Assembly (NCBI GenBank): GCA_964016885.1
Contig: OZ024763.1
Location: 10,354,001 to 10,418,000 of the forward strand
DNA from: Eledone cirrhosa
Taxonomy: Eukaryota
Reading direction: 5' to 3'
Length of the DNA stretch: 64,000 nt
Shown here: piece after piece, positions 12 to 59,400 of the stretch
Layout: each line of letters opens with the position of its first letter
Position numbering within the stretch: position 1 is the stretch's first letter
Program-made: the position numbers and the translations under genes
The notes under the pieces: model-generated
Database searches by the model: none
What the model saw: only the letters and a program-made list of their open reading frames with translations
Told to the model about the DNA's origin: nothing

Positions 12-82
12 TGTTTTATCTGATGAAAACACAAATATTATTGCATGATGATGTTTGTTTTTGAAATGCGCATAATAAAATA
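12..82 (+). ncRNA. Minimal type-I hammerhead ribozyme motif
   Basis: UGUUUUAU-CUGAUGA-[long stem II 27-62]-GAAA-UGCGCA-UA|AUAAAAUA: 8-bp stem I, palindromic stem III AUGCGCAU, NUH site AUA. Confidence 0.75.
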
Positions 83-918
83 TATGGAACTCCTTTAACC
101 ATCTTTTGATCTTATATTATGCATACTCCAGTCCTACAAACTGTAGAGTGCTTCTTATCCGATATCTGCATTGCTTTATTGTACTACAATAAAACTCACC
201 TCCTATATATATATATATATAAAGAAAACATGTATATTTAGAAAACATTGAGTGGAATTTGAAAATAGAAGATCTCGCCGTAATTTTGACTAAGTGTAAC
301 AGTCTAATAATAATTGTTTCTACTTTTGGCACAAGGCCAGCAATTACCCAGTACATTACTGGTACTTTATTTTATCGACCCCGTAAGGATGAAAGGCAAA
401 GTTAACCTCAGCACGATTTGAACTCAGAATGGCAAGGGCCGTAACTATGCGTCAAAGCAAGGCATCCGACCCTCTACCAATACAGTCTAATAATAATGGT
501 GAGTAAAAGATGGGCATCAGCACACATGGGGGTCAAACACACACCACTTGTTTGTGCATCACCATGGGTTCATTGGCGTAAATGGTAGCACACTTGTCCG
601 GCAAACAAGAGGTGGGCTGATGCCCATCTTTTTCCATTATATGGTCTTATATGTCCCGTTATCAGTAGACTATTTTATTTAGTCAAAATTATATATGTGG
701 GTGTGTGTGTCACCGTTTTTAAGTTGGAGGCATATATATATATAAGTTGGAGGCATATATACACACACACATACATACATTCTCGCAGGCAGCAGTTGTA
801 AAGAGAGAGGAGTAGTATGAGGTAGTCAAACTACTCCTCTCTCTTTTTATGTGTTGAGACAGAATTGCAGAAATTTATATATATATATATATAATCTCAG
901 GAATTTTACCTGCCCTAG

Positions 919-960
<42 letters not shown>

Positions 961-1531
961 CTATATATACACACTTATATAGACAGAAAAAGAGAGATAG
1001 AAGTTACTAGTGAAGTGCTGTGTTGATACTTAGCTGGACAGTGGGTAGTGTGGCTGTAACGAAGAGAGTAAGAAGCATCCTGGACAAAAACAGTGAAGAA
1101 GGAAATGTGACATTCTATATAACATATAACAGGCAATGATGGTGGTTAAGTGAGACTGGTGAAAGCTAAGGTTAAAGGTTAGAGATTAGTGCAGACTGGT
1201 ATAATGAAAGCTAGCCAAGGTCAAACGTTAGAGGTTAGATATTCAAAAGTGTAGCCAAATACATATACCAGTGGTCTGTAGGGAGGCAGAGATCGATATC
1301 TGACCCCCCTATAACTGGGGGGGGGGGGGGGATCTGTTCAAAATTCCATGTGCATTGCTGAAACCATAATATTAACCAGTAATGGGGAACCATTGTTTGT
1401 GATTGTTATACTTGCTGTATAGCAATCCAGGCTGGACAGAATGTTAGTTAAGCATCCATGTAGATAGTTGAGGGCCCTGGGAGTTAGGTTCTAGCACATA
1501 TCTATACTAGTGACTATCTATTCTTCTTTAA

Positions 1532-1745
1532 CCCTTTAGCATTTAAACAAGCCGTATCTGGCCAGAATTATCTCACCTCTTTCTCTTCAAACCGGCAGTA
1601 ACCAGTCACTCATGCTGATGTTAAAGTATTGTTCTCAAAATAAATATAAAAATCTCATAGATTCAATATTATGTGAGATAATTATGAGGTAAAACCTTTA
1701 CCATGAAAGTATAAGTTTAAAAGGAGTAATGTAAATGCTAAAGGG
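1532..1745. mobile_element. piggyBac-type MITE
   Basis: TTAA TSD on both sides; TIR CCCTTTAGCATTTA...TAAATGCTAAAGGG. Confidence 0.85.
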
Positions 1746-1904
1746 TTAAGTATGAAGATTTCTCTCTTTTAATTGTGATTCAGACAGTATGAACAATGTG
1801 GAAGGTTGTGGGTGGGGCAATTATAGGGAGAGTCCTTCAACTTCAGGGGGTCTACAAAGGCATTACTAAGGGGTCCGCCACGAGCTAACATCTTTGTTAA
1901 CATC

Positions 1905-2478
1905 TGTTTGACTTAACTTGGTCAGAATATTGATCTCCTGGAAACTGTTGAGAGACGTGCAACCAAACAAATACCCTCCATCAGGCATCTACCATACTTT
2001 GAACACCTTGCTTTCCTGGCCATGGATGCATTAAGGCTCCAAAATCTGGCAACTGACTTGATAGGCACCCACAAAATTATTAACCATCTTGTCAATAACC
2101 CTGAGCACCTTTTTGATTTCCATGTGTCTAACACCTGTGGACATGCTTACAAAATCAGAAAACAGCACAGTTCCCATGACTTTCAGAAACATTTTTCACG
2201 CTCAGAGTTGCTGAAGCATGGAATAAAGTACCTGCATCAATTGTTAGATGCCGGGACACTGCATCCTTTAAAACTTCCATTCTTCTCGAGATTTGCCAAC
2301 ACTACACCAGATATTCCCCCTCCATACACAAGCATGTGTGTGTGTCTGTGTGTATAACATAACTCATACACTGTTCACTTTCCTAACATTTGTACATTAT
2401 TCTATGTACTATAGATGCACCTTTGATGAGTTGTAGTGCACCTGAGCACTGTACACAATAATTTTCATTATATAATTA
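1905..2478 (+). mobile_element. CR1/L2-group LINE 3' fragment
   Basis: IDLLETVERRATKQIPSIRHLPY.E.L..L.M..L...RL..DLI..HKII pattern; ends in a (TTA)-like tail. Confidence 0.8.
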
Positions 2479-2610
2479 TATGTAAATGTGTATATATATA
2501 TATTAGTAATAATAAATACAAAAACCGAAATCCGAACAGGACTTGATAAGGATTGTATATATATATATATATATATAAACTCGTAGGGCAAATATTTATT
2601 ATTAGTACAG

Positions 2611-3188
2611 AGCAATAAATTACTGTTTTCACCCTAAGAGAATCTGAAACTGACAAAATTAATCTGTAGATGCAGAAGTAATATGTATATGCACATATGT
2701 GTGTACATTCGTATATATGCAAACACACACATGTACATATATATGCACACACATACATGCATATATGTGTGTATATCATTTTTATACACTATATCCTCCT
2801 TTATGCATGCATCCACACCAGTCACAGCGTATTTATGTATGGGACTAAATCCCAAAACAGCATTGTTAGTGTTCTCATTATCATTATTAATATCATTTTC
2901 CGTATATAGTAGCTGGAAATCATTTGGCTATTCTAAAAACAAAATTAGTCTCCAGATTTTTTTCATAGCAAGAATTTGTTGTTCTTGCTCCACGTAATGA
3001 CGTAATTCTCCTTGCATGCATTTCGCTCATTTCAAGAGAACATCTTCACACACAATCATTATGTCTTCCTGTTTTCTAAAGGTAATATTTGGTTGTAACA
3101 TTTTTGAAATATTTACTTTTGTATCTATAGATTAATTTTTCTCAGTTTCAGAAGATCCTGTTTAGGGTGAAAGCAGTAATTTATTGCT
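2611..3188. mobile_element. Inverted-repeat-bounded Penelope-like remnant with decayed hammerhead core
   Basis: 2611-2685 is the reverse complement of about 3110-3188; cagaagatcctgtttagggtgaaagcag also occurs near 43320; internal minus-strand peptide VNIS..LQPNITF.KQEDIM..CEDVL recurs on + at about 57630-57720. Confidence 0.55.
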
Positions 3189-3610
3189 TAAACTTTTAAT
3201 ATATATATATATATATATATATTATAAATGTAAGGAGAAAATAGACAAAATCTACCTAATTTTTTCTCCAAAGTCCCGACTGCAGTTTTATTATATATAG
3301 TTATAATAGTTAAATAGATCTGATTGAATGGTTATTTTTTTAATTCTTTCAGTCATTGGGCAAAACTGGTTACGGCAGGATACACACACACACACACACT
3401 TATGTATCTGTGTGTGTATCTTATTATTATATATATCATCATTATTTTACGTCCGCTTTTAAAATGATGATGATGATATATATAATAATAAGAAGATACA
3501 CATGCAGATACGTAAGTATCTATATATATATATATTGTCTAACCCCTGCTAGCATGGAAAATGGATGTTAAGCGATAATGATGATGATATATAGGTACGT
3601 GTGCATGGTG

Positions 3611-3646
<36 letters not shown>

Positions 3647-5152
3647 CATGGTATATATGTATGTGTGTGTGTATATATATACATATATAAAAAATATACA
3701 CACTCACACTATTAGATACCCATTCTTCTCTAAGTATAAACATTTATCTTTCGATTTGTAGAGCCCTCCCTACTTCCAGGAGTTGAAGGACTCTGGGTGC
3801 TATTTAGATGTACGATATTGTTGGTAGTGTAAAGATTGGGTAGCACTGGTATGTCATATGACAATCTAACAGGCAATCACATAACAGGAAATAACAGGGA
3901 TATCACTGGGCTAAATTAAATAGAGCAATTTATTATTCAGGAAAACAGTTTTTATTTATTAATCTTTGGTAAGCATTAGTTTTAGGCAAGTACATATAAA
4001 TATAAATATATAGTAGCTATGTATTGTTTACAACAGACTGATACAAACATACAGACTGTCTGAAAAATAGAAACAAACATGTACATACATACAAATATAC
4101 ATACATTCTCTCTGTATATATAATGTGTGTGTGTGAGAAAAAGAGAGAGATTGGGAGTTACCAGTTTAGACTAGTCAGACCCCATTATTCAACTATGTAA
4201 TCGGGAAAGTAGAGTAAACAGTTATTGCCCAATGGCTGAGCTTCTCCACTTGGTGTTTAAACGTTAGGTGCTCAGCACTGGGCAATAACTCTTTATATAT
4301 ATATATATATAAAACATATGCGTACAGTTAAACATTTAAATAAATGTAAACCACACAAACCTTATGTTATAAAGTGAAAAGTCTGTCTTTTAACATCAGG
4401 GCAGGGAATACCTGACTTCACTTCATTTTGAGTAACTGAGACTATATAAGTCTGCTTTACACATTTATATACATATTTCTGCAAACATGTTATACAAACA
4501 TCATGACTGTTTGATGGGGGGGTTATTAAAGATATTTTGTATATTGTAATTAGTTCCTTATGTTTGGTTTGGACCATTAGTCTTCCTAAATCCACTATTA
4601 AATGTTTCGAGATCCTCACAACCCTATCTTCAGAAATAATGGTGTGTTGTTCATGTGATATCATGCGAGTAATAGTAATCAATGCTGAATTTAAATAAAT
4701 TATTCTGAAGATGGAGCTGAGAAGGTTTTGAAATGTTAACCATTTTAATACCGAAGTACCTGAAAATGTCCCTGATTCTATGATACAGAAATGTTTATTT
4801 GAAAGTGTTTATATTTATCTAAAAAAATGTACCATCATAATTTTATGTAAGAACCTTTGTTAAGTTACATTCCAAACACCAGATTAATAAGCTAATCATA
4901 ATACAGAATCTGACCAAATTCTTCATTATTTTCAAAACTTTGAAAATCGTAGAGAAGAGAATCTTTCATTAGAAATATTGTAATGAAAGTGTTGAAACAC
5001 ACAGGGACTTTGGAGCAGCATTGTTCCAAAACTAAAGTAAAGAACTGATAAGGAAATATGTGCAATATTAAATAAAAGATCAAATGGAGCACAGTGGTGT
5101 TTTAAATATAATGTTTGCAAAAAGCTGTTCCCTTCTTACATATATATATATT

Positions 5153-5397
5153 GTTATAAATGTATTCTCAGTACTGTTGCACGTTACCTAAGTTTTTGAA
5201 GCCCACTCTAGCATAGGTTTAGAGACAGTGTATCTGCTAATGTTGCTTATCTTTCAGGCAAGTAATACTAATACCATCATAGTATTGCTTGCCTGGGAGA
5301 TAAGCAACTACTAGTAGATATACCATCTCTAAACTATGCTAGAGTAGGCTTCAAAAACTTAGGTAGCGTGCAACAGTATTGAGAATTTATCTATGAT
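5153..5397. repeat. Long imperfect hairpin (about 115-bp arms), MITE/foldback-like
   Basis: attctcagtactgttgcacgttacctaagtttttgaagc... pairs with ...gcttcaaaaacttaggtagcgtgcaacagtattgagaat. Confidence 0.85.
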
Positions 5398-5480
5398 AAT
5401 ATACTTTACCTCTCTACTTAATAAAGAGCAGTCTTTTTCTTTTATCTAGTCTATGGAAATTCTTGACACTACACACACAT

Positions 5481-5528
<48 letters not shown>

Positions 5529-6796
5529 TGCACGTTACTAAGCCTCTATCTTTCCACATATTGCAGGTAAATATAAAATATAAGTGGCTTGTCTCCAGTT
5601 TTGACATTAAATACCACTGCATCAATCTCAGATGTCTGTCTATCTATTGCCAACAGATAGGTGAACTGGGCCATATGGAACAAAGTGCTCTACAAAGGAG
5701 GGCAACGAAATAGCAGTAATGAGTTTGATCTGACTACATCTCCTTGGCTACCTTGAATTTTAAGGTAGCAATGGTGTCCTCAACTTGACATAAATAGCAG
5801 CGAAATCTCCTTTGTGTCACACTTTACTGTCTTAAAAAGAAGACGCTAGATAATACAGCCATAGATGAAATGTGTCTTAGAAAACAGATAAGATGGTCAT
5901 GACTGGAGTGTCTTTGATGATAGATCAGCTTCATCATGGCTGACCATGGGCTAAGTAAAAGTAAGGAAATAAAGGTATACTTAGGAATACTCAGCCAAGT
6001 AATCCCATCCCCTCCTTAAGATTGGGACATAACTACAGAGTGTTTATTACTCCTTCAGACACCATATATATGTGTGTGTGCATATACACACATGTATAAA
6101 TGTACCTATGTATATTGTAATTAGCAGTAGCACTAAGATAACATATTATCCACCCACTAATATAAATATGTATACATATATTTATTAACATTATTATAAT
6201 TACTATAATTATTCTTGGTACATTTAGGCTTACATTAATTTCAGACATGTAATTTATGGGCCGTGGGGCACAGGTGGAAGAAAAGGGAAGGGGGCAGTGA
6301 GTGTAAGGAGAAAAAGTGGGCGGAAGAATGGCATAAAAACAATACAAAAATAGCAAATTAAAAAGAGGGGGAGACAACAATGAACAAAACTAAACCACAA
6401 AATAACTAGGCAAACTGGTTTTTGTTTTTTTAAATACAAACACACTAACATATGCATGCTTACACATTCATGCATACATATTTAGACACACATGCATGCA
6501 AACATACAAACACATTGAAACTCAGACAACCATACATGTAAACACACACTGACAAACACAGACACATTAGGAAACATGCAGTTACTGTGAGCATGCCTGC
6601 CTACATAGTCATTTTATCACTGTGTTCATGTTTAACAGATGATCGGGGGAAGGCATTGTGGCAGTTAATATTTACTAGTAGTAGTAGTAGTGGTAGTAGA
6701 AGTAGTAGTAGAAGTTGCCAGAGAATGACATTTCTTTTGCACATCATGTGATGTCAGTCCAAAGAAATCGAGCAAAGAAGCTAATTCTGGGCCTAC

Positions 6797-6963: not shown

Positions 6964-9900
6964 CTGAAACAACACAATACAACAAGATTTGAATTAACAA
7001 ATTTTAGATATTTTCTCCTCTATCATTACAGGATGTTAAGTGTTAAATAAATAAGTATTATCAAATGGAGACAACACAGGGTAAAAAAGACACTTTAGTC
7101 TTGTCAAGGACATGGCAACCTCTCTAGTGTTAGTGCCTCAATAAATTATAAATGTTGCATATAAAATAGTGACTTATACATGAGTATAATGTTGTATATA
7201 AAATAATGACTTATACATGAGTATAATATTGCATATGAAATAATGACTTATACATGAGTATAATGTTGTATATAAAATAATGACTTATACATGAGTATAA
7301 TGTTGTATATAAAATAATTACTTATACATGAGTATAAAATTGCATATGAAATAATGACTTTGACTTATACATAAGTATAATGATGTATATAAAATAATGA
7401 CTTATACATGAGTATAATGATGTAAATAAAATAATGACTTATACATATAAGTTCTCTCTACATTTGGCTTCAACAATGATGAAAGAAAATATGGACTTAG
7501 CCTACCTAACCGCTCCTGTAAAGTACTGACTTCCTGCGACAAAGTCTCTTCAAGTGTGTTCTTCTCTTGTTGGTCGGCCAGAGCCCTGTCTTTCAGAAAC
7601 AAGATCTCACTCTTTAAAGTATCCTCTAAGTGTTCTTTAGCCACCTTTGCTGCAATAATCTCTTCTCGGTACTTCAATAATAACAGCTGCATTTCCTGGA
7701 AAACAACATTCAAAGGAAATTGATAGAGGAAGAATAGACCCCAGTACTGGAGTGCTACTTTTTTTATCGACCTCAAAAGGATGAAAGGCAAAGTTGACTA
7801 CGGCGGGATTTGAACTCTGAGTGTGCAATGAGGTGGGACAAATGCCGTAAAGCATTCTATCCAATGTCTGAACGACTCTGCCAATTTGCCACCTTATAAA
7901 ATGTTGATATACACATCATCATCATCATCATTTTTACGTCCGCTTTTCCCTGCTTGCAAGGGTGGGACGGGAACTGGTTCTGGCTTGATTTCTACAGCTG
8001 GATGCCCTTCCTAACACCAACCACATTTACAGTGAGTGCTGCATGCTTTTTTTCCGTGGCGCCTCCACGACCACTTTGCAGTGTGGGCTGGGTGCTTTTT
8101 TGCTGTGGCACCTCTACAACCACTTTACAGTGTGGGCTGGGTGCTTTTTTGCCGTAGCACCTCCACAACCACTTTACAGTGAGGGCTGGCTGCCTTTTTG
8201 CCGTGGCCCCTCCACGACCACTTTGCAGTGGAATGATAGGGACCCCAGTCCTATCATCTCATTTCTACAGCTGAGTTAACTGGAGCAATGTGAAATAAAG
8301 TGTCTTGCTCAAGGAAACAACACATCACCCGGTCTGAGAATTGAACTCACAACCTTTCGATTGCAAGGCCAATGCTCTAACCACTAAGCCATGTGCCTCC
8401 ACACACACAAATATTACTTGCAGCATGAAGACATACATATCCCCCCCCACCATAAATACACACCCTCCCCATATATGTCAATCCGCCAGACAGATGTTGG
8501 TGTTATAATATCAAAAGTTACGACATACTTCAAGGTTGTTAGGAAGGTTGATATCTTCATTCTGTAACTGCTGGGAATGCTTGGAATGCTTGCCGATGAG
8601 GGAATCATTTTCATGGCTTAGCCGATTTAACTGCAAGAAAATATATAGAGAAATATTGGGTTAATTCGGGCCAAATATATAAATGTGATAATTGTGGGGA
8701 ATACATATATAACTATGTACCTATTATCTCATATAACACTATAACTATATACCCAGTCTCTATGTTAACACTATAACTATATACCCAGTCTCTATGTTAA
8801 CACTATAAATATATACCCAGTCTCTTTGTTAACACTATAACTATATACCCAGTATATATGTTAGCACTATATACCCAGTCTCTATGTTAACACTATAACT
8901 ATATACCCAGTCTCTATGTTAACACTATATACCCAGTCTCTATGTTAACACTATATACCCAGTCTCTCTGTTAACCCTATATACCCAGTCTCTCTGTTAA
9001 CACTATATACCCAGTCTCTATGTTAACACTATATACCCAGTCTCTCTGTTAACACTATATACCCAGTCTCTATGTTAACACTATATACCCAGTCTCTCTG
9101 TTAACACTATATACCCAGTCTCTCTGTTAACACTATATACCCAGTCTCTATGTTAACACTATATACCCAGTCTCTATGTTAACACTATAACTATATACCC
9201 AGTCTCTATGTTAACACTATATACCCAGTCTCTATGTTAACACTATATACCCAGTCTCTATGTTAACACTATAACTATATACCCAGTCTCTATGTTAACA
9301 CTATAACTATATACCCAGTCTCTATGTTAACACTATAATTATATACCCAGTCTATCATATATCTGAGTCTATGTAATCACAAGATATTGGTCAACCAATG
9401 GTGACATGCAAGGTGGGCCATTTTGGAGGAGAGTGAGGGGGGCAAGGGCAAACCTATTCCCCTTAAGTACATACATACATACATACATATACCAACTATA
9501 TATACATATACCAACTATATGGATGTGTACATATATGTATAGGGATGTGTATATGGATGTGTGTATATGGATGTGTATATATATGGATGTGTATATATGG
9601 ATGTGTATATATATGGATGTGTATATATGGATGTGTATATATGGATGTGTATATATGGATGTGTATATATGGATGTGTATATATATGGATGTGTATATAT
9701 GGATGTGTATATATGGATGTGTATATATGGATGTGTATATATATGGATGTGTATATAGCCTGTAACCCAAACCTAAATTACATTATATATAACACTGATG
9801 AATAAAATACTTTACAAACAAATTAAAATAGAGCAAATATTTCATATCTGGCCTGGAGCTACACACCTGGAGCTACACACCTGGAGCTACACACCTGGAG

Positions 9901-12900
9901 CTACACACCTGGAGCTACACACCTGGAACTACACACCTGGAACTACACACCTGGAGCTACACACCTGGAACTACACACCAACACAGTGATATAAACACAC
10001 AGAACTACACACCTGTGATATAATTACAATAAAATATTAAGACAACCCTACCTCAACTTGGACTTCTTCCCGTGACTCAGTCAATGTTTTCTACAATAAA
10101 TAATATAAAATTATATATATATATACACACACACAAAACAATATGAAACAATACATATAATATATATATACTAGCTTACTGGTTAAAGTGTTAGGCTTAC
10201 AATTGTGAGGCTGTAAGTTTGATTCCTGGACCAGGTGATGCGTTGTGTCCTTGAGGAAGGCACTTTATTCCATGTTGCTTCAGTTTACTCAGCTGTAGAA
10301 ATGACGTCACTGGTGCCGTGTTGACCAGTGCCTTCCCCTTAGATAACATCTGTGGCATGGGAAGGGGTGACTGGTTTGCATGGTCTTCCACAAACAACCT
10401 TGCCCCAACAAAAAGCATCCAGTCAACCCTGTAAAGTGGTTGTGTTGGTGACAACAAATAAGCACCCAGTTTTCCCTGTAAAGTGATTGTGCTGGTGACA
10501 TGACAAAAAGTACCCATTCTACCCTGTAGTACCTAGCTAAAAGTAAACGCCTCTACTTAGCTTTTGTTGACTTGGAGAGGGCCTTTGACAGAGTTCCCTG
10601 TTCCATTATCTGGTGGGCTCTTAGAAATGAGATGAGTGGCTTATGAAAGCTGTATAAGCCATGTATAGAGAAACAGTCAGCAAGGTCAGAATTAACAATG
10701 ACTATAGTGAAGAATTTAGTGTGCAGGCATGTGTCCATCAGAGCTCTGTCCTCAGCCTTCTCCTGTTTATTATTGCACAACAAGCTATAACAGAAGAGTT
10801 TAAGGCTGGCTGCCCATGGAACTTCTGTATGCAGATGATCTAACACTAGCTGAATCTATGGCAGAATAGAAGAAATTCCAAACCTGGAAGCATGGCCTAA
10901 AATCAAAAGGTCTTAAAGTTAACTTGTCAAAGTTCTAGTATGTAGAAAGGAACATAGGGCCTAGATCCCCTCAGGGAAATGGCCTTGATCAGTGTGCAGG
11001 AAAGGAGTAGGTAGAAATTTCATCCTCTGTCCCAAGTGCAAGCTATGGGTACATAGAAATCACAGGTAGGCTATCAAAGAATGTAGGTTTTATATGCAGT
11101 CGATACACAGGTGCAGTAAGTAGCAAGTGCCCACAGGATACTAGCTCTTTCAAATGCCCAGATGGCTCTGTTGAAATAGTCAACAGTTTCCGTTACCTGA
11201 GTGACAAAATCAGCAGTGGATGAGGGTGTTCCGAAAGTACAGTAGCCAGAGTAAGAACAGGATGGAGAAAGTTCAGGGAGATACTGCAGCTGCTTTTTTC
11301 CCTTAAAATGAAGGGCAGATTGTATGATCCATGTTTATGAACAGCAATGTTTCATGGTAGTGAGACCTGGGCGCTGTGTGTAGAGGACCCGCGAAGATTG
11401 GAAAGAAATGAAGCTTGCATGATTCGATGGATATGTAATAGTAATATACACGAATGGCAAAGCGTAAATGAACTAAGTGAGAAATTAAGCAGAAGAAGGA
11501 TCAGATGCAGTATACTAGAGAGGAGATTGTGTTGGGATGGTCATGTGATGCATATGAAGGATGACAGCAGTATAAAAAGGTGCAGGCCGATCAAAGTTGA
11601 TGGAAGCTATGGAGTAGGAAAACCAAGGAAGAGGTGATAAAAGCTGACCTTGCATAATTCTACCTCTCAAAAACAATGACACAAGATTGAGATCTTCGGC
11701 ATTATGCAGTAATACAGAAAAGCTGCCTTCCCAGGAGCACAGACTGAAACATATACCATTATGGCTCTATCACTTGGACGCTAACGTCGAAACTGGAGAA
11801 AAAGCTAGACGGGGCATACACACGTATGCTCCGTGCTGCTTTAAACGTATCTTGGAGGGAACACCCAATAAATAAGGATCTCTATGGCAATATACCACCT
11901 ATCAGCAGGTCAATACATGGACAGAGACTCAGATTTGCTGGCCACTGTGGACGCAAGGAAGAAATAGCAGGTGATGTGTTGTTATGGAGTCCATCTCGTG
12001 GAGCAAGAAATGCTGGTCGTCCCAAGAAGACATACGTCAAGCAACTTGAGGACGATACTTGGTGCACTGCGAAAGAACTGGCAAACGCTATGAGACAGAG
12101 ATGGATGGAGGAAACGTGTCGTAGAAAGCCGAGCAAGCTCGACCTGATGATGATGAGTAGGCACCTCTTAACCACTATACCACCCCTTCTATACACATCC
12201 CATGTTCCAAAACCCAGCCACATCTGATCACACCACTGTTACACTGTAAAGTTGTTGTGTTGGTATCACAACAAAAAGCATCCAGCCCACACTGTTAAGT
12301 GGTCATGAAGGTGTCACGACAAAAAGCATCCAGCCCACACTGTAAATGTGGGTGGCATTAGCAAGGGCATCCAGCTATAGAAACCAAGCCAGAAACAGTT
12401 CTCTGTGAGCAAGACACAGTCTCCTGACCCAACTTGCCTCAAACAGGACAACCTATCTAACCGACACAAGCATGGAAAATAGACGTTAAATGATGATGAT
12501 GATATATAGTTAATACTGCCAAGTTTCAAGCTCAATGTGTTTTTGTCATTTTAGATAGAAACAGAAATTAGATTATTTAAATAGAATCCAGAGACATATA
12601 ATAAGACAGAACATAAATCTACTCTGTCATTTCATATAGTTATATAATAGCTTTACGTGTGATGCAATACATATTTAATTAATGTTTATGTTATTTCAAT
12701 TTAATTAAGGAGGAAAAAACATTGAGTAAATAATTACACAATGACCTGGAAATTCGGCAACCCTAAATGTTATACGTTCGGTAGACTACAACATTTATAG
12801 TGCCTCTGAAGATATACAATATTTTCCTCGTTAACTAAATTGAAACAACATGAACTTTAATTGAATATGTAATGAAATATGCAAAGCTATTAAATTATTT

Positions 12901-15900: not shown

Positions 15901-18094
15901 TAGGAACATCTAATACATAAAATCATTTTAAAAAATACAAAAGTTTTTTAAAAACAGTTAAAAAATGCTGATGAGAAAGAGGTGTATATTATTGTGAGAG
16001 AAGCATATGATGTTTGGAGGGAATGTTATTTAAAGGTTTTATACTGATATTTCAAATTTTGCTAGTCATTATTAATTAAAGTTTTTTATTAATAAACCTG
16101 TAAACATACATCTTACAAAGTGTAATATTCAATCTTATATGTTTGTTCAAACATATATTACATGGACATAAAACAGGTGAACATCCGTGCAGGGAGATTC
16201 AGTCTGGACTCGTGTGGAGATGGAAAGGTAGGTCCCTTAAGTGCACTTGTCACACTATGTCCTCAAACAATTTGGAACTTTTTGAAACTGATCTGAAAGA
16301 TTTCCTGGCATGATTTGTAACCTTGAGCAAGACTTGGGTCCATCACTACCAACCTGGAACAAAGGAGCAGTCTAAACAGTGGAAGCACCCATCCTCACCC
16401 ACCCCGAAGAAGGTCAAGATCACACCATCAGCAGGAAACGTCATGGCTACCATTTTCTGGGATGCACAAGGAATGTTGTTGGTGATTATATCCAAAAGGG
16501 CCACACCAAAATGTCTGCATGAGAACATCAAGAAGAGGCCCTGATTGCTGACAAAAGGGGCCTTGTTCCATCATGGCAATGCTCCTGCCCACATCGCGGT
16601 AGTGGCAATAGCAATAATCTGTTACTGTAAGTTCTAACTCCCTCATCTACCCTACACACCAGACCTCACACCCTCCAACTTCCACCTGTTACCAAACATG
16701 AAAAAGGATATGGCTGGACAACACTATGCCACAGATGACGTTGTCATAGATGCTGTGGACACCGACATGGGGGACCAAACTAAGGAGTTCGACTTCAGCA
16801 CCGGTGGAAAAAGTGTGATTCAAACGGAGACTATGTGGAAAAATAAAACAAGACAATATTTGCATATGCTACCGTTTGTTGGAGGTTCAAAACTTTTCAG
16901 TCACCCCTCATATCATCATCATCACCGTTTCACATCCATTTTACCATGCTTGCATGGGTCAGATGGGTCATCCGTGTTGAGAGACAAGTCTGGCCAGGAT
17001 TGGCTACACCGTATGTTGCTCGAACGGGACTATAAATTCAGTCAGGGTTTTAGCAGCTGGATGCCCTTCCTAACACCAACCAACCATCATCATTTCATTT
17101 TACGTCCGCTTTTCCCTGCTTGCAAGGGTGAGACGGGAACTGATTCTGGCTTGCTTTCTACAGCTGGATGCCCTTCCTAACACCAACCTCATTTACAGTG
17201 TGGGCTGGGTGCTTTTTTGCTGTGGCACTCCCACGACCACTTTGCAGTGGAATGATAGGGACCCGAGTCCCTATCATCTCATTTCTACAGCTGAGTAAAC
17301 TGGAGCAATGAGAAATAAAGTGTCTTGCTCAAGGAAACAACACATCACCCGGTCTGAGAATTGAACTCACAACTTTTCAATTGCAAGGCCAATGCTCTAA
17401 CCACTAAACTTATATATATATATAAATCATTATCATCATCACTGTTTAACATATTTTTTCCATGCTGGCATAAGTTAGATAGCTTTCAAATACTGTAACA
17501 TGTGGAGGGTGTCTGACATAATGTGGAGTGTGCTTGGTTTCCCTTGATGGCCCACAAGGGGTGTTTATATACTGCTTAGAGCAAGTGGATGAGTGATGTC
17601 TGTCATTTTGGTGTGTGCCAGGCTTTGCTGGGTTGGGGGGTGCAAGGGTGCAGCAGGTGGAATGGGATGAATCAGTCAAGGTTCATTCTAGCTTTCCATG
17701 CAAGCATGGGTCGTGCAAAGAGGTTATTAGCAGGCGAGGACCTCAGAGTTATTCCTTCTTCAGGTTTAGGGTGGAGGAGATCACAAGTATGCTGATAGGG
17801 AATTCAGGCGTGTACTGGCAGGAAAAGGGCGACGACCTGAGTTTTCAACCACTTCTATACATACAACTAAATTATGACATATACACCAACTTGTATATGT
17901 GTGCCTGTCAGTATGTGTCGGTGTGTGTGTGCCTGTGTGTGAGTGCGCGAGTCCCTGTCTCGGTGTGTGTGCATGTGTGAGTGCCTGTCTCAGTGTGTGT
18001 GTGTATCTGTGTGAGTGCCCGTCTCAGTGTGTGTGTGTGTGTGTCAAAGTACGTGAGTGCCTGTGTGTGTGTGTATTTGTGTGAGTGCCTGTCT

Positions 18095-47100: not shown

Positions 47101-50100
47101 TTTTTTTCAATATTTTTTACATTTTTCCCCAATAACATTAATAAAAATGTAAACGAGCTTACTCATATATTTTTTAAGATTAATTACAGAATTATGGGAT
47201 TTGCTAATAACTGTTATATACACATATTGAGTCATACATTTGTGTATACACATATTTATACATGTGTGAATACATATATATTTATACATGTGTATATACA
47301 TGAATATATTTAAATTCGTAAATTCTCAGGGAGATTCACTATGTGTACCCTTAAATATAATTCTCAGGGTGATTCAGCATATGTATCCTTAAATGTAATT
47401 CTCAGGGAGATTCAGCATGTGTATGCTTAAATGTAATTCTCAGGGAGATTCAGTAAGACACGGTAATTGACAGGGCTGAATATTTCACACACAGACATGA
47501 CCAAAAGAGGACATGAATGAACACCAACACATTGACACACCTGTCACACCACACAACATATGCCCCATTAAATACGTGGTGGTACCTAGAAGAAAAGGGG
47601 GTAATAGGAAGAGCACAGGGACCCAGTAAAGGAAAAGAGACTATAACATATGGGGGTCTATATACTCTAAATTAGTAGGAAAGGGACATATATATCCATG
47701 GTTAATGACATTCTTACATATATCAAGAGAATGTAGAGCGTTTATCTACATATATAGTTGTTATCTACATGTGTGTATACTATATATACACACATACATG
47801 TATATACATACATAGTTATTATCTACATCATCATCATGTTACGTCCGCTTTTCCCTGCTTGCAAGAGTGGGACGGGTCCTATTCAGCACAGCATCTCTCC
47901 ATTCGTCACAGTCCTTAGTCATCTCCTTGTGAACTTCAGCGATCTGAGGTCAGTCTCACCACCTCCGCCCATGTTTTTTGTGGTCTTTTACTGTGTCTTC
48001 CTTCCACTGGGATTTCTTGGCACTTCTTTACCCAGCGGCCATCCTCCATGTGCATCACATGTCCATACCAACGCAATCCTCTCTCCCGCACACTACAGTT
48101 TATCCCTCTTAGACACAGTTTCGCTCTCAATTCGTCTATGCTTGGTCGTTCATGTACATTGACATTACACATCCATATATTATCTATATACATACATAGT
48201 TATATTTACATGCATGTGTATAATATATAAACACACATACATGTGTATATTATCTATATAATATTTGCAAATGTCTGTGTATTTGTATGTCTGTTCCACA
48301 AAGCATAATAGTAATTGTTTTCAGAAACACTTCCCACCCTCTTTTTCTTCCTATTTTCTTTTTTCTCCCTCCCTTTGCTCTCTTTCTCTCCCTCCTCTCT
48401 CTCTCTTGAAAAATGACGCTTATTAATTCCAAAACAAATGTATGTGAATCTTCATAAAAGTTCATATTTTTCATGAATGATCGTTTGTGTTCCAAAAGAG
48501 TCTAAAACCCTCTTAAAAGATATAAAAACAATATTGTATGAACAAAGTATCAGTTGAACTTCAGCCAGATTGCGTTAGCTTTTATAAAGTCATTTTACAT
48601 CAGTCATAGAAAGTCAAGCAAAGTGAGGTGATACTAACTGCATCACTAACACACTTTACCACAAAATGACATGGAGCTATTTGGTGTTGTCAAAGTGCAG
48701 TGATATTAATAAGCACAATAACACACTAAGCTCCAATGATGCTAGCCTTCCAATGACAACTTAAATGGGGTAAGCTTCGTCATTGATTTATATCTCCCTG
48801 GTGAAGATATTCATGTAATTTGGGATCAAAGAAGCAATCAAAGAGATAAAGAATGTCAGGACCATCAGACATAGTTGCTGAGACGCTGAAGGCATTGGGA
48901 GAAGTAGGAGTCAATATAGTAGCTTGCATAGTCTATCAGGAAATACAGGACGGTGTCATACCCAATAACTAGCACAGCAGTACAATCATAAATTGCTACA
49001 AGGGCAAAAATGATGTTCTAGAAAGGAGCAACTACAGAGGAATAAAACTAATGGACCAAGTTATGAAAATGACAGAAAGAGTTATAGCGCAGCTAATTAG
49101 GAGAAGAGTTAAATTAGAAAAGACGCAGTTTGGTTTTATGCCTGGGAAAAGTACTACAGATGCCTTCTTCTTAGTGAAGCAACTGCAAGAGAAATTTCTA
49201 GCCTAGAATAAGCTGCTATATTTAGCTTTTGATGATCTAGAAAAGGCCTTTGACAGAGTGCCTTGCTCTTGTGGTCCTTAAGGAAATTAGGTGTAGAAGA
49301 ATGGCTTGTGAGAGCAGTGCTAGCCATGTAGAGAGGAGCTGTCAGAAAAGTGAGAGTAGGAAGTGAGATTAGTGAGGAATTCAAGGTACAGGTAGGAGTT
49401 CATCAAGGTTTGGTTCTTAGCCTACTGCCGTTCATCATAGTTCTCCAGGCCATAACAGAGGAGTTTAAAAACTGGCTGTCCATGGGAACTTCTCTCTGCA
49501 GATGATTTGGTCCTTGTAGCAGAATCAATAAAAGAACTCAAAAATATGATCTGTCTATGGAAACGGAATTTGGAATCAAAAAATCTGAGAGTAAACTTGG
49601 CCAAAGCTAAAGTGCTAGTGAGTAGGAAAGATAAGAACCCAATCCCTTTAGGGAAGTGGCCCTGCACAATATGTAGAAAAGGAGTAGGCATAAACTCCAT
49701 ATGGTTTACACAATGTAAATTTTGAGTACACAAGAGATGTAGTGGGAAAACGGGTAGACTAACAGGAAAGGAAGACTTTGTATGTAAAAGATGCTCAGGA
49801 CTAATCAAAGTGAAGAGTGTCAGTGATATAAACCTCTTCAAGTCACAGAAGAGGGGGGGGGGGGGGGTCCATAGAAGTGGTTGATAGCTTCTGCTATCTA
49901 GGTGATATAATTAGCAGTGGAGGAGGTTGCTTCAAGAGCATAGTAGCTAGAATCAGGATAGGATGGAAGAAGTTTAAGGAACTGATACCTATGTTGACAA
50001 CAAAATGTTTCTCTCTATGAACAAATGGTTGGCGCTATGACGCCTGCATGCGAAGTGCCATGATGCATGGTAGGGAAACATAGGAAGTGACCGCAGAAGA

Positions 50101-53100
50101 CATGCATAGACTGGAGAGAAATGAAACAGCCATGCTTCGTTGGATGCGCAACGTAAATGTGAAGAAATGCAGAGCTTGGATGAACTGAGGGAGAAGCTGG
50201 GTTTAAGAAGAATCTGAGGTGGTGTGCTGGAAAGAAGATTGTGTTGGTATGGACATGGGTGAAGAAGTGCCAAGAAATCCTAGTGGAAGGAAGCCACAAT
50301 AGAGGTAGACCAAGAAAGACCTGGGCAGAAGTGGTGAGAGCTGACCTCAAATAGCTGAGGCTAAGAAGAGATGACAAAGAAATGGCAATGAGTGGAAAGA
50401 TGCTGTGCTGAAAAGACCCGTCCAACCCATGCATGGAAAAACAAATGGAAAAATTATGATACCTCTTTTGAGTTCGGCACCAACGTCTTACAGTAAGCCA
50501 CCTGCTCTGCCTCCCGGGCCAAACAATAACTTATCTGTATAGGACCGATGAGGGATCCTTAAGTTGCACAAGTGGCAGCCCATGATCATCTGGTGTAGAC
50601 GAGGATCTAAGAGAGCAGTTAGTCCTGAATAAAATAAAACTGTATGGGACAGACATGGACCCCATTAGCTGTAGTGAAGACAGCCCATCTAGGAGGGCAG
50701 AGAGAATAAAAAATGATTTAGGGGGAAAGGATCCTTGAGTCCAATAAATGCAGCCCATCCATGCTTAATGATAGGAAGGGCATCCAGCCAGAGAAACCCC
50801 TGCCAAAATTATGAAAAGCTCAATACATATGACTCACACTAATTGCATATACAGGACTAACATTTGTCATATTAGTGGTGTGCATGGTAATATGGTGGCT
50901 AAAGTAGCTATGTGAGAGAACCCTTCGACCACCATCAAGTAATTGCACACCATTTTTCATTTCCAAGTACAAAGAAGTCACCATCAAGTAAGACATCTCA
51001 GGGTTGCCACTCTGAAATGTAGATCAGGTGAAGATGTGGAGATGCTAGAGAGGAGAGAAGTGGATGTATGTTGTGTAGAATAGGTGAGATAGAGGAGTGC
51101 CTCAGCAAGACCACAGGCAAACAGTATAGTTACAAGTTCTTCTGGGTAGGAAATGATGGGGTAGGTGGTGCAGGCATTCTACTAGTTGAGAAATAGATAA
51201 TGTAATAAATGTAGTTAGACTGACAGAATTATCAAACTTGGATTAGTTGGAGGCAACAGAATAGGAAAGTCAGCAATAATGACCTCAAACAAGTCCACTA
51301 CACATTCTACCATTAACTTTTGTTTTGTCACATATTTCTCACCTTATGGGTGGGAAGGGTGGGTGGAGAGGGTGGGTTGAGAGGGTGGGTGGAGAGGGTG
51401 GGTGGACAGGGTAGGTGGAGTGGGAAGATGGACAGGGTGGGTGGAGAGGGTGGGTGGAGAGGGTGGGTGGAGAGGATGGGTGGACAGGGTGGGTGGACAG
51501 GGTGGGTGGAGAGGGTGGGTGGAGAGGGTGGGTGGAGAGGGTAGGTGGACAGGATGGGTGGAGAGGGTGGGTGGAGAGGGTGGGTGGAGAGGATAGGTGG
51601 AGAGGGTGGGTGGAGAGGGTGGGTGGAGAGGGTGGGTGGAGAGGGTGGGTGGAGAGGGTGGGTGGAGAGGGTGGGTGGAGAGGGTGGGTGGACAGGCTGG
51701 ATGGAGAGGGTGGGTGGAGAGGGTGGGTGGAGAGGGTGGGTGGAGAGGGTAGGTGGACAGTGAGTAAACAAACATATTCCATGCAGGGACATTACCTTCG
51801 GAGAGGGTCATATTGTTATATTGCCAGAAATATACAATAAAACACTCAATGTTTGGCTTGGAATGGTTTTCACTTCTGTATCTATTACATCCCTATAGTT
51901 AATTTAGCTGGCAATCTATGTTTATCATTGATTGACCAACGGTTAATAATATAGATATAAATATATATATATAGTCTCTCAAAGTTCTTTCATCACACAC
52001 CTGTGTCATCATCAGTGGTACTATTATGTTTCCTCCCATTGTATTGCTGTAATATTTTCTTATTCTATTTTATTTATTTATTTATTGTTGTCTCTGTTTG
52101 TGTGTGTTTGTGTCTGAGTCTGTGTGTTTGTGTCTGAGTCTGTGTGTTCTTGTATTTTATCTTTGGTCATTAGTTGTGTTTATGTATTGTTGTTATTATT
52201 TTACCTGTGTATATTTATTTAAAGATTAAAGTGGTAGAAAAGCCAGGAACTATCATAAAATCCCTGATCTGCAAAACTTACCCCTTTAAGAAAGCCCACT
52301 GTACTAGTAAGAAATGTGTAATATGTAGAATAAATCCTCAAATAAATTGTAAAACTAGAAATGTAGTCTATAGCATAAGATGTACAACATACATAGGAGA
52401 GACAGCCTGGAGCATAGGGGAGAGTAGAGACCAACACTGGGGTGAACTAAAAGGACAAAAAGACAGTTTGGTACTATATGAACATGCCAGACAAAGACAT
52501 GATGGTAATATAGACAACATAGAAATTAAAATAATATCTAAATATAAAAATGACAACAGATAGACAAATTAGGGAAGCAACTGATATAGTCTATTATATA
52601 TATATTTATATCTATATTTTTAACCATTGGTTAATCAATGATAAACACTGATTGCCAGCTAAATTAACTATAGGGATATAGAATATACAGAAGCGAAAAC
52701 CAATCCAAACCAAACATTGAGCGTGTTTTATTATATATTTCTGGCAATATAACAATATGACCCTCCCCAAATATAACAATATTTGTTTCAACACATGATT
52801 TCATATCTAAAACACTTGCAAAACAAATTCATCACCGACATTACCTTCCTCATACTGTCTTCTAAACTTTCTGCTTCAACCGATGCATTTGTACTGGAAA
52901 CACTTCCACTGACACGTTTCAGGGACTTTGCTACAGAGGCTAGAAAACCTTCCCTGGAAATAACAAGAGGAAACAATAACTCAGACATTAAAAATATAAA
53001 TCAAACAAACAAAACATTACACATTTGCATTAGTTTTCCTGTATTCTGTTACTGCTTTCAGTCACACCCTGCTGATGCCCTGCTTTGAAGGGCTTTAATC

Positions 53101-54697: not shown

Positions 54698-54741
<44 letters not shown>

Positions 54742-56406
54742 ATAGAGTACTGAAGATGGATACCCAACATCCACAGTGAATCGACTTAAGAATCGAAGGC
54801 GCTGCAGACATTTGATCTCCTCTAAAACCTGCTTCATGAAATTAACACATTTCAGCGAAAGCATAAACACAGCTATCTGCAGAGCTATCCGCAAAGGACT
54901 GGACATACAATTAGCACACTCCGGCCCTTCACTGAGTGGATACCTGTCTAAAAAGCAATCCAGAGACAACAACAACCAATGTTCACTGACTAACTGCCCT
55001 ATCCATGACATAGGTGTGTGCCAGCGGACACATGGTATACTGGATCGAATGCAACAAATGTAAGGAGTTCTACATTGGTAGCAGGACTCCAGCACTCCAC
55101 ACTCGTATTAAAGAACACCTCAACACACGTGCATCCTCATTCAAAAAACACATCAACAAATGTAGAAACATCAACCAACATATTAGTCAATATTAAAGCC
55201 AGTGATAGAAATGTGGGCAACTTAAGAATTAAGGAAGTCTTGCTCATACGAAGGCTCAACCCACAAATAAATAATAGATATCGTGTAGACACATACACAC
55301 ATACACAGTATGTTACATGTTTTCCATATTTTAAACTGACTATATTGACATCTGGAGGTTTACAGAGCCAACAGGAAGAACTATACTTTTAATAATACCT
55401 TTAGAAAAGGACACATTAGATAAAGTAGTCCGAGTACACTGGGTTTGTAAAAATATAAATATATACTTTTTGCAGTTTGAAAACCTTACATCTTGTGTCT
55501 ACTAAATGAAGAATGACCATGGGCTAAAAAACAAGAACAATGGAATGATCACAGCTGGAATAACTTTGGTCATAGGCCTTCTTGGGAGCTGACCTAGGGC
55601 TAAACAACAACAACAAGAGATATATCAGTCCACTACTGACCTAGGGCTAAACAACAACAACAAGAGATATCAGTCCACTACTGACCTAGGGCTAAACAAC
55701 AACAACAAGAGATATATCAGTCCACTACTGACCTAGGGCTAAACAACAACAACAAGAGATATATCAGTCCACTACTGACCTAGGGCTAAACAACAACAAC
55801 AACAACAAAGGATATATCAGTCCACTACTGACCTAGGGCTAAACAACAACAACAACAACAACAAGAGATATATCAGTCCACTACTGACCTTTCTTGATTT
55901 AACTGCATCTTTAGATCTTGAAGTTCTTGCTCCGATTTCTCATTCATCTTCATCATTCTCTGCCAGACACTCTCGTATTGAGCTGCTGTCTTCCTTGAGG
56001 CTTCATCAGCTGCTTCTGTAACACACACACATTTTACTTGTCAACTCTCTCCTTACTTTTCTGGGTTTTTTCTACACTTTTCTTCTTCCTCTTTTCACCT
56101 AATGAAGGACATAGCCCAAAACATTATCAACTGACATTTTTTGTCAGAGTTAAAACAGTATCCTTGAATTTTACTGTATTCTATCTTGATTTCGTTTTTT
56201 CAGTCTATTCACTCACTATATGTGACTATGTGTATATATGTATATATTGGAAAATGTGTGAAACCCTTGGTACAGTTAGGTATATTTTAAAAAAGGAAAA
56301 GAATTACTTCACTTGTAGTTCTAAACAATTTGATAAATCATAATATTATAAAATTAAATTAAATTGTTTAGAACTGAAAGTGAAGTCATTCTTTTCCTTT
56401 TTTTAA

Positions 56407-56439
<33 letters not shown>

Positions 56440-59400
56440 AAGAGAGAGAGGTGCTGAGATCAGGGTGACTACTAAAAATACTCCTTCAGTATCTAAGCTC
56501 TGTTTATACATAACCTCACTTCCTCCACCCCTAATTCAGATGATCATTTGTACTCCTGAAGAAGGAGTAAAGCCCGATACATCAAATTTTGTTTCCTCTT
56601 TTCCATATTAAGTTGGAAACTAATAAGACTTTTTGTATCTCTGTTTTGTCCTTTTCTTGAACTATATTTTCCACGCTTATGCGGGAATCCTTGTATTTTG
56701 AAGCCTTGTGACTGCTCTATTTCACTATCCTGTCCAGCCAACAGATTACCCATGAACTCTGAATATTTGGATTTTTATTGGACTGCTCTTCTCTGCACTA
56801 ATTACCTGCGACCTGTTCTCTCTCTATATATATATATATATACTTATATATCTCCCCTTTTTCTTCTTGTCAACCTCACTCATTCCTACTTCCCACCATG
56901 CCTAGTCAACTACTCACTATCTTTTATTTTCTGTATCTTTCTTTTGTGATATTTTTGTACTCCAGAAGAAGGACTAAAGTCCGACACATCAAACTTTCTC
57001 TTTTTCCATATAAAGCGTGTCATTACCTTCAACTATATATATATAAGAATTTAGATGAGTTCATAATACAACTATATAAAAGTAAATAATATTTCAAAGC
57101 TCAAAGTGATTTTATAATCCACAGATAGACTAAACAACAATGAATATTCCTGTTATTTTAATTGAAGCATTCGTCAATCAATTAAATGATTTAATTCAAT
57201 TTAAATTCTGGTTTATATATATATAGACAAATGAAGTATTTCCGTTGGAAAGGTACAGGAAAAAAGAGTGTTCTATGTAGGCTACAGAGCTTTTTAGTTA
57301 TTTATTCATTTGACAACTGAAGACAGACATAACATCTGCCTTCAAGAAACCACAGGTAAATGAAATAATTATCTTATGTTGTTTATTACATAAATAAATA
57401 AATATATATATAGATAGATAGATAGATAGATGGATAGATGAACAAATATATAATAAATAATGGCATATAAGGAACTCAATACATTCATAAAAATGGAATA
57501 TAGAGAAATGACTTCTACAGGACTATTATTTCTATATGAAATAAATAATTAAATGTATTAAGCAAACAATTTCTGCTTTGAACCTTAAGTCAGATCTTCT
57601 GAAAATGAAAAAATATCAATCTGTGGACGAAGAAGTAAATATTTCACAACAATTACGTCCAAACATTGCCTTTGGAAAACAGAAAGACATAATGGTAACA
57701 TGTGAAGACGTTCTCGTGAGATGCAGCAAAATATATGCAAGAAGAATTTTTATTACCTCCCTTGGACATGATGAGATCTCATATATAAAATGTCAGCCAT
57801 CTTATTTCTTGCCAGAACAATAAACAAAAACTAGCATGGAGAGTGTTGTTAGAGAAAAAGAATACATCACACCCCCAAAAAGTCACACTACTCACAAACA
57901 TACAAATCCCATTTAAAATCCAAATTCTGATTCAATTGGAGACTTCAAAGGGACATTCTCCAAAAGAATCTATACCAACATTTCAGTGCTGGGGACCACA
58001 ACTGGCAGGAAAGATGGATCAACCTTCCTCCAAAATATCTAAGGTAAGTCACCCTCCCCACTTTTTCTGCCTCTTCATCGAACATGGTTTCACACAAGAT
58101 AGGCAGTATAAATGTACGTGGCCTAGGGACGTCTTGGAAGTAGGGCCACCTGCACAACAACCTTAGGTCACTGGATATAGATGTGGTGGCTATCAGGGAG
58201 ACCAGATGCTACCAAGTGTATTTCCAAACCGTCTGAGATCTGGAGGTGGAGTTGCCGTGTTACGAAGATGAAGAAGGAGAAGAAATAATTGTAAGAAATT
58301 GTAAGTATTTCGTTTCATCTATTTTATTAATTAATTATTGAAATATTTGAGGTGGGTACTATTTTTATATTTTCTTCTTTAATTACTCTTGGGTCCCAAA
58401 TAACAGTGATTGGGGAACATTTGCTTAAATTCTTATAAGCAGGGGAGGGGGGCATTTACTTAAATTCTTATAAGCAGGGGAGGGGGCATTTGCTTAAATT
58501 CTTATAAGCAGAGGAGGGGGCATTTGCTTAAATTCTTATAAGCAGGGGAGGGAGGCATTTGCTTAAATTCTTATAAGCGAGGGGAGGATGGGTTTCTGTA
58601 ATTGTATAGTGTACGTTCGTAAATATGGGATTTCTTGTAACGTTCTTTTTTTGTCATATATAATGTTTTAATGTAAAATAAAATTATTAGATTCTAATAA
58701 TTAAAGTACCAATAAATTAAAATAAAGTACCAGTAATGCACTGGGTAATTGCTGGCTTTGTGCCAAAAGTAGAAACAATTATTAGATTCTCCAGTTGCTG
58801 TATCGATATGAATCACTTACAATAAAATTTTGCCAGACATAGATTAGTAAAAATTAATTAGTGGGAAGGAAGAGGAGGGGGGTGTATCCTGATCTGAGAG
58901 TACTTATCGTGATAAGCAATTGTAACTATTTCATCATCATCATCATCATTGTTTAACGTCCATCTTCCACACTAGCATGGGTAGGACGGGCTGTCCCTTT
59001 GTGAGGGATCAGGTTAGGGGACCATGATTCGCTCACACAGAACTGATCTGGCTTGATTTCTACAGCTGGATGCCCTTCCTAACACCAACCTCATTTACAG
59101 TGAGTGTGCTGGATCCTTTTTGCCGTGTCACCTACATGACCACTTTACAATGTGAACTGGGTTCTTTTTGTCGTGACACCTACATGAGCACCTTAGTGTA
59201 GGCTGGGTGCTTTTTGTTGTGACACCTACATGACCACCTTAGTGTGGGCTGGGTGCTTTTTGTTGTGACACCTACATGACCACTATAGTGGGCTGGGTGC
59301 TTTTGTCGTGGCTTCAGAGGGGATCACGTTATAGAGGAGGTTGGGAACTTGGGAGGGGTGGGGAAATTTGGGACGTGGGTATAGGAGAGGTTTATGGGAG

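Follow-up and report, generated by a model that had tools for sequence, protein, structure and literature searches.

Penelope-like elements (PLE) of animals from cnidarians to reptiles, molluscs included, carry minimal hammerhead ribozymes that number thousands per genome and mostly occur as single motifs (Cervera and De la Pena, 2014, PMC4209133). Here such motifs are described from a 64,000-nt stretch of the genome of the octopus Eledone cirrhosa (GenBank assembly GCA_964016885.1, contig OZ024763.1, positions 10,354,001 to 10,418,000, forward strand), called the window below, in which an initial annotation had listed fifteen near-intact or degenerate hammerhead sites within the introns of one gene, RABEP1 (Rabaptin-5). 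The intact motifs are likely ribozymes of the pseudo-long terminal repeats (pLTR) of at least three unrelated PLE families, left in these introns as 5′-truncated stubs for which inertness and decay are predicted.

The Eledone motifs share with the published PLE hammerheads the type-I topology, the CUGANGA and GAAA cores, a bulge before helix II and a short or palindromic helix III, as well as a mostly single occurrence, opposite-strand pairs 100-700 bp apart and the presence of many families in one genome (PMC4209133). The molluscan examples given there come from Lottia and Crassostrea, and the searched supplement names no cephalopod. In the giant squid, 235 “hammerhead 1” ribozymes were counted and not tied to PLE (PMC6962438), and PLE have been annotated in octopus genomes (PMC13282606; PMC8967140); the word hammerhead does not occur in the main text, as distinct from the supplements, of the O. 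vulgaris repeat paper PMC13282606 or of PMC8967140. A literature search retrieved the giant squid count only and no description of octopus PLE hammerheads; with that count, the novelty in cephalopods is limited.

Insertions of endonuclease-bearing (EN+) PLE (PMC3846280; 10.1101/2021.04.23.441226; PMC11167929) provide a further comparison. As in these, inverted 5′-truncated copies lie head to head with direct copies at the Eledone locus, a tail occurs at one end only, an open reading frame (ORF) starts within the pLTR and tail, the target-site duplication (TSD) is short, and the GIY-YIG endonuclease, at the C-terminus, comes after a zinc finger, an order of the Neptune/Nematis type. The locus differs in holding stubs only, with tails of about 50-70 nt against the published 30-40 nt and a TSD of 12 bp where the rotifer examples have 8-10 bp. 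Animal non-LTR (long terminal repeat) retrozymes (PMC7229834; 10.64898/2026.07.22.740005) are likewise non-coding repeats with type-I hammerheads, and 42-44% of the Xenopus copies overlap introns (PMC7229834). The mark of retrozymes, tandem units each with an intact hammerhead, is absent here, where the sole direct pair (56556/56963) has GAAA broken in both copies.

Hammerheads in introns are also known from amniotes, the ultraconserved families being presumably HH9 and HH10. The intronic location is common to both cases; the amniote motifs are reported as conserved (review PMC6765202), whereas those described here are dispersed repeat fragments, mostly antisense and without an Rfam match.

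Hammerhead motifs and their host gene

A strict descriptor (exact CUGANGA, helix II of at least 3 bp, GAAA, 2-8 nt, UH, helix I of at least 4 bp) matched the window exactly five times, at the five near-intact motifs of the initial annotation (Table 1), each lying where that annotation had placed it. Dinucleotide-shuffled sequences (300 whole-window and 300 in 1-kb blocks) gave a mean of 0.02 matches and a maximum of 1, an enrichment that is post hoc, as the descriptor was composed after the sites had been seen. Since motifs 42036 and 42163 (named, as all sites here, by position) are the two arms of one palindrome, the five represent four independent insertions. A relaxed scan, with one core mismatch allowed and helix II of at least 4 bp, recovered four of the five, missing motif 20 because of its helix II rule, and gave 0.6 matches per shuffle in a control of 40 shuffles; none of the ten sites called degenerate passed it. 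The type-I order, with intact CUGANGA, GAAA and UH and with closing helices I and II, is therefore held by five of the 15 listed sites, to which the minimal architecture first claimed applies. Motif scans of Joint Genome Institute (JGI) metagenomes returned no match.

The host gene was identified by exon 15229-15447, which matches Octopus Rab GTPase-binding effector protein 1 proteins at 97%, and by mapping of the full-length protein. Residues 838-968 had no match within the window and a GT directly follows the last exon present, so that bases 1-6796 are intron. All 15 noted sites thus fall in RABEP1 introns, as had been proposed; five are sense and ten antisense to the gene, the intact copies being divided three to two. 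Many mollusc RABEP1 proteins end in a C-terminal FYVE domain (PF01363), whose exons lie outside the window.

Table 1. Coordinates, strands and basis of the features discussed in the text.
Feature	Position	Strand	Basis or remark
Near-intact type-I motif 20, antisense to RABEP1	12-82	+	core 20-26, at the window edge
Inverted pair of the 3148 repeat family	2592-3224 (2592-2710 −, 3004-3224 +)	.	similarity
Head-to-head degenerate cores 4633(−) and 4705(+)	4595-4750	.	helix I fails to close
RABEP1 (Rabaptin-5) coding exons	6797-63853	−	full-length protein mapping; gene extends beyond both window ends
Solo fragment of the multi-copy repeat bearing motif 15885	15698-15965	−	contig depth; boundaries approximate (33-nt bins)
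Best sense-strand motif, 15885	15839-15891	−	core 15885-15879, intact
Near-intact sense motif 36613, long helix II	36551-36617	−	extra A ahead of GAAA
Decayed inverted partner of 36613, core broken	36841-36919	+	78% over 64 nt
Palindromic PLE-type insertion, young, within (TA)n	41871-42424	.	arms 41871-42096 and 42103-42371, head to head
Sense motif 42036, left palindrome arm	41998-42040	−	descriptor
Motif 42163, identical antisense copy, right palindrome arm	42159-42201	+	descriptor
Further 3148-family copies	43317-43404; 57524-57748	+; −	similarity; four copies in all
PLE insertion unit akin to the 42-kb palindrome	51788-52848	.	inverted 5′-truncated arm, direct copy, tail, TSD
Degenerate hammerhead 52015, helix I down to 2 bp	51979-52018	−	inverted arm
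GIY-YIG endonuclease remnant, open frame	52174-52560	+	protein relatives
Second PLE-type endonuclease remnant, frameshifted	54951-55184	+	33 of 150 queries match, best E 2.7e-6
Two decayed direct copies, 56556 and 56963, 407 nt apart	56547-57015	+	GAAA broken in both; antisense

Motif 20 has helix I at 12-19/75-82, a long helix II (27-62) containing a single C-U mismatch and no bulge, GAAA at 63-66 and an 8-nt palindrome at 66-73 (8-bp self-duplex, −10.5 kcal/mol), with the cut predicted after 74; it has no relative elsewhere in the window. Motif 15885 combines a 6-bp helix I, a bulged A (15878), helix II at 15877-15871/15864-15858, an extra A (15857) ahead of GAAA, a perfect palindrome of 8 nt at 15853-15846 (self-duplex −11.1 kcal/mol) and a C in position 17; its cut is predicted between 15845 and 15844, and the core is followed, 438 nt downstream, by the exon that starts at 15447. 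A second hairpin occurs about 45-50 nt downstream of both motifs, at 116-160(+) and 15750-15795(−). The helix III insert of 36613 is non-palindromic (self-duplex +0.3 kcal/mol), as is the GAAC insert of 42036, a motif with a G bulge, a 6-bp helix II closed by G-C and U at position 17 (self-duplex of 42036/42163, +1.3 kcal/mol). A palindromic loop III is seen in 20 and 15885, and not in 36613 or 42036/42163. The GAAC insert (42004-42007, 51983-51986) is common to the 42036 and 52015 subfamilies, and a dimer of either would have tandem A-A mismatches.

Departures from the published form are as follows: 42036 and 42163 keep the G-C pair with a G bulge, and 15885 and 36613 have an A bulge, an A-U pair and the extra A; no motif in the window combines an H bulge with G10.1-C11.1. 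Each departure has a precedent row among the 56 of Fig. S3 in PMC4209133, which includes a G bulge, an A-U first pair, absence of a bulge and an 8-nt palindrome; the departures thus make these motifs less typical without bearing on whether they work like the published ones. AGAAA fills one of the 56 GAAA cells of that figure, so that the extra A is rare and not unprecedented, one published cell comparing with two families in this window (15885 and 36613). Fold z-scores of the four intact motifs folded were modest (−0.8 to −2.2). Lunse, Weinberg and Breaker have reportedly described PLE hammerhead variants in RNA Biol, which may already cover the extra-A form.

Several unrelated families are represented, in line with the initial annotation. 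In pairwise comparison, the score of 20 against 15885 was reached by 11 of 300 shuffles, and is not significant, and that of 36613 against 15885 by 2 of 300, which is marginal. Stems do differ between copies and still pair, as had been noted; the cause is the difference between families, and not covariation within one alignment.

Insertion units with inverted arms

The unit at 51788-52848 is the most complete insertion. Its 12-bp TSD (51788-51799 and 52837-52848) is identical at 12 of 12 nt, its arms share 160 matches with 15 substitutions (divergence 8.6%), and the direct copy, from which the hammerhead is deleted, extends into about 70 extra bases of tail. The frame at 52174-52560 (ORF 52228-52560) has 307 protein relatives at E ≤ 0.001 and aligns near the C-terminus of the long ones. 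In three of the five relatives printed (P0085, P0122 and P0145), a reverse transcriptase (RT) core is followed by a C-terminal zinc finger and GIY-YIG, and the shorter P0097 has the same order, all judged by eye; Atlas look-alikes (0.95 and 0.93), with GIY-YIG on 11% and 19% of their members, point the same way. The unit therefore bears the marks of EN+ PLE, namely an inverted 5′-truncated copy, a one-sided tail, a TSD and, by way of its relatives, a C-terminal GIY-YIG after an RT that the truncated copy lacks. A word-indexed protein search found nothing for this remnant. Together with the second, frameshifted remnant, beside which no intact hammerhead lies, the remnant of this unit bears out the GIY-YIG remnants reported at the outset.

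The palindrome near 42 kb has a 6-nt centre, a tail of about 50 nt on the right arm only, and arms with 217 matches and 5 substitutions (divergence 2.3%). It resembles the 51788-52848 unit in the hammerhead (85% over 40 nt) and in the 3′ end plus tail (63 of 79 columns), by which it is classed as a stub of a related subfamily. In both, a short ATG frame opens just before the tail; in published elements, the pLTR holds the first 12 ORF codons and the tail extends them (PMC3846280). If the arms have not been homogenised, the calibration of PMC13282606 (distance 0.09 equal to 25 million years) would place the palindrome at roughly 3 and the 51788 unit at roughly 12 million years.

Both palindrome arms (42087-42112) begin at one 10-mer, about 60 nt before the hammerhead core; it resembles a YY1 site and is possibly the RNA start of the element. 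The palindrome (41871-42371) would give a near-perfect pre-mRNA hairpin of about 220 bp, some 150 nt upstream of exon 41580-41723, which the 1010-aa isoform P0007 of O. vulgaris contains and the 968-aa P0004 does not; this hairpin is a candidate substrate for adenosine-to-inosine editing or a candidate splicing modifier. MicroRNA matches in Rfam at 42030-42169, MIR7725 among them, were rejected, as they mirror the perfect hairpin.

The 15885 repeat family

Contigs of four public runs (X1, X5, X6 and X8) were aligned to 15170-16130; X6 and X8 lacked exon coverage and were uninformative, and the X5 exon contig stops at 15464. In X1 the locus matches letter for letter over 15825-15923, and the summed contig depth is 130-885 over 15665-15928 against 13-20 in the flanks, a depth that is no copy number. 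The family is also present in X5, in which 18 of 244 exon bases differ, and depth was raised in two of the four runs. Motif 15885 thus sits in a dispersed multi-copy family of about 270 bp found in two organisms, as part of a repeat fragment rather than as a unique ribozyme conserved in the intron. Four contigs, two in X1 and two in X5, join plus 15777-15780 to minus 15861-15872; such plus-to-minus joints are the signature of an inverted truncated copy beside a direct copy. The joints cluster in the downstream hairpin at 15750-15795(−).

Among the 40 variant rows listed, of 85, seven fall within the motif, four of them in loop II, and two in helix III keep pairing through G-U; none affects the core, helix I or the extra A at 15857. 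No contig listed lacks this A, which appears to be a trait of the family. The window copy differs from most family contigs at no fewer than five nearby positions (15773-15785), and the search for a TSD gave no convincing one for this element.

Degenerate sites

Most of the degenerate cores can be recognised only as relatives of a neighbour. None of 300 shuffles reached the score of the inverted 36840-36613 pair, of 52015 against 42163, of the direct pair 56556/56963 or of 3148 against 43322. The same held for 4633/4705 and for 56099 (to 56556), at low scores of 35 and 29 and in a test that is inflated, since both sides had been chosen for the shared core. Site 57310 was unsupported (24 of 300 shuffles reached its score); chance or near chance probably explains it and possibly explains 56099. 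The 36613 pair, 4633/4705, the 3148 pair and 56556/56963 likewise yielded no convincing TSD.

The 3148 family has A at position U4 in all three copies that retain the segment, a non-palindromic helix III insert and a helix I that does not abut the core, and is therefore not a hammerhead as it stands. For the frame opposite its motif, the word-indexed protein search found nothing, and the similarity of that frame between copies may reflect only the 77% DNA identity. An intron-like stretch (by eye: GT/GC after AAAG, a U-rich tract, CAG) precedes the motif at 3080-3152(+) and 57524-57748(−), and its AG would fall on the altered U4 position; in D. virilis, PLE introns end at the hammerhead.

Predicted behaviour in the host pre-mRNA

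Folded alone, the sense motifs 42036, 36613 and 15885 reached helix I probabilities of 0.45-0.96. Folded in context, which for 15885 meant 281 nt, all three had a helix I probability of 0.00, and 42036 and 36613 also lost helix II because their inverted partner, transcribed earlier, pairs with them; 42036 is predicted to be fully sequestered by the opposite arm. Dimer formation requires two copies on the same strand whose helix I arms and helix III inserts are compatible. No intact pair of one family lies on one strand in the window; the only related sense copies are 42036 and the decayed 52015, separated by 10 kb. PLE minimal hammerhead monomers showed no cleavage and dimers low cleavage (PMC4209133), and in an anole PLE the motif cuts in vitro, is dispensable for insertion and has no RNA-seq reads that end at its cleavage position (PMC11167929). 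That some copies cleave or process the RABEP1 pre-mRNA, as the initial annotation had suggested, is not supported: ten of 15 sites are antisense, and the three intact sense copies stand alone, each in a family of its own, with helix I predicted to be lost in context. Host pre-mRNA cleavage is unlikely.

Interpretation and alternatives

The interpretation of the intact motifs as pLTR ribozymes on PLE stubs builds on the motifs themselves, on their strand and location in introns, on one complete insertion unit, on one palindromic stub and, for 15885, on a multi-copy family with inverted joints. A Penelope origin, claimed at first for all sites, is established for the 42036/42163/52015 family and strongly indicated for 15885. 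Published work suggests that in the parent element the motif would act on tandem element RNA, cutting it slowly in the form of a dimer joined by the helix III palindrome. Reverse transcription would start near the tail and, ending early, would leave a direct copy with an inverted copy, by which the head-to-head pairs are explained. In the host pre-mRNA, the antisense arm would precede the sense motif in transcription and close it by pairing; solo copies, having no partner, would be inert passengers.

Several observations weigh against this interpretation. Rfam gave no hammerhead family at the gathering score over the whole window, none among the 150 of 181 matches listed at E ≤ 10, and none in four local scans at E ≤ 10; this speaks against the motifs belonging to the curated families, the models of which may miss minimal forms. 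The published >80% consensus (an unpaired H after A9 and G10.1-C11.1) fits none of the five motifs in full. Pfam had no match on the endonuclease remnant itself, and on 20 relatives it matched two (GIY-YIG, E 8e-4; RVT_1, E 2e-4), both below the curated cut-off. No PLE coding sequence is linked to motifs 20, 15885 or 36613 in the window. The 15858 U to C variant breaks the first helix II pair of 15885 unless its partner co-varies; the partner change is not among the 40 of 85 rows listed, in which the variants are unphased and the only changes seen were one-sided and compatible with G-U. The folding results are equilibrium predictions on chosen sequence windows, and the 5′ arm of 36613 could on paper pair over 6 bp with the 3′ arm of 15885, in one direction and at a distance of 20.7 kb.

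The AU-rich motifs 20, 15885 and 36613 might instead belong to non-autonomous, retrozyme- or SINE-like (short interspersed element) repeats that borrow PLE enzymes, rather than to pLTR of coding PLE. Their lack of a linked ORF and the mere 270 bp or so spanned by the 15885 family would fit, as would the derivation of animal retrozymes from PLE pLTR proposed in a 2026 preprint (10.64898/2026.07.22.740005). Retrozymes are tandem motif-bearing units, however, and none of the three is tandem; the inverted 5′-truncated joints are a PLE insertion pattern, and the two classes intergrade, so little would change. This alternative is rather unlikely. With the same origin, at least one sense copy could still cut the RABEP1 pre-mRNA by dimerising, the partner being another pre-mRNA molecule or transcripts of its own repeat family, and thereby adjust splicing or expression. 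Motif 15885 would be the best candidate, having an intact core, the 6-bp helix I, C at position 17 and the stable palindrome, a position close upstream of an exon and a multi-copy family; intronic amniote hammerheads have been proposed to act on pre-mRNA (review PMC6765202). Its helix I is predicted open in context, it differs from most family contigs as a drifting copy would, PLE dimers cleave poorly in vitro (PMC4209133), and the sense strand shows no depletion of intact copies (3 versus 2, too few to weigh much). Such cutting is quite improbable, and slightly more so is a distinct octopus PLE hammerhead subtype (an unpaired A flanking helix II on both sides and an 8-nt palindromic helix III), at tens per Mb, with sense intronic copies such as 15885 cut in trans whenever transcripts of their family provide the other half of the dimer.

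A chance origin of the motifs, in DNA rich in AT and in repeats, could draw on the absence of Rfam support, the modest fold z-scores and the post-hoc descriptor. None of the 600 shuffles exceeded one match, motifs lie within units bearing a TSD, a tail and an endonuclease, and the listed variants of the 15885 family spare the core; a chance origin of the five intact motifs is largely refuted and retains very little probability. Least credible of all are intronic C/D-box small nucleolar RNAs (snoRNAs), to which the UGAUGA-containing motifs gave weak local Rfam matches through the UGAUGA word and which would suit an intronic position: all matches are far under the gathering score (best 24.8 of 51 bits), motif 20 lies antisense to RABEP1, and 15885 belongs to a dispersed repeat.

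Other repeats in the window

Among 22 ORFs, the only Pfam matches above cut-off were a mariner transposase remnant at 16104-16900 (Transposase_1, E 4e-10) and an RT remnant of the LINE (long interspersed element) type at 45525-45965(−) (RVT_1, E 1.5e-15); similar LINE-type fragments were seen by eye near 11000-12200, 33500-34700, 48900-50500 and 60500-63200. A SINE-like repeat with a tRNA-like head occurs at 32727-33029, 17110-17405, 7944-8391 and 43384-43688 (Rfam tRNA, 29.6 bits at 32727-32788). The longest minisatellite, of about 2.5 kb, spans 37614-40200 in 41/44-nt units, and others lie at 13967-14475 (56 nt), 30493-31020 (16 nt) and 51268-51838 (13 nt).

Significance

Four independent intact-motif insertions per 64 kb amount to about 60 per Mb, in a window picked for its motifs. 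The Xenopus tropicalis genome measures about 1.5 Gb. Some 9,000 motifs have been counted in it (PMC4209133), and the density found here exceeds the one implied by these totals, with descriptors that differ and a window chosen for motifs. The finding would matter far more only if cleavage of host RNA were shown; trans cutting of sense copies, if true, would tie transposon activity, across the genome, to cleavage of host pre-mRNA. In a repeat family present in two organisms, the extra A ahead of GAAA looks fixed. The locus provides two clean examples of the PLE insertion pattern of inverted arm, tail and TSD, and extends to octopus the known pairing of PLE terminal repeats with minimal hammerheads.

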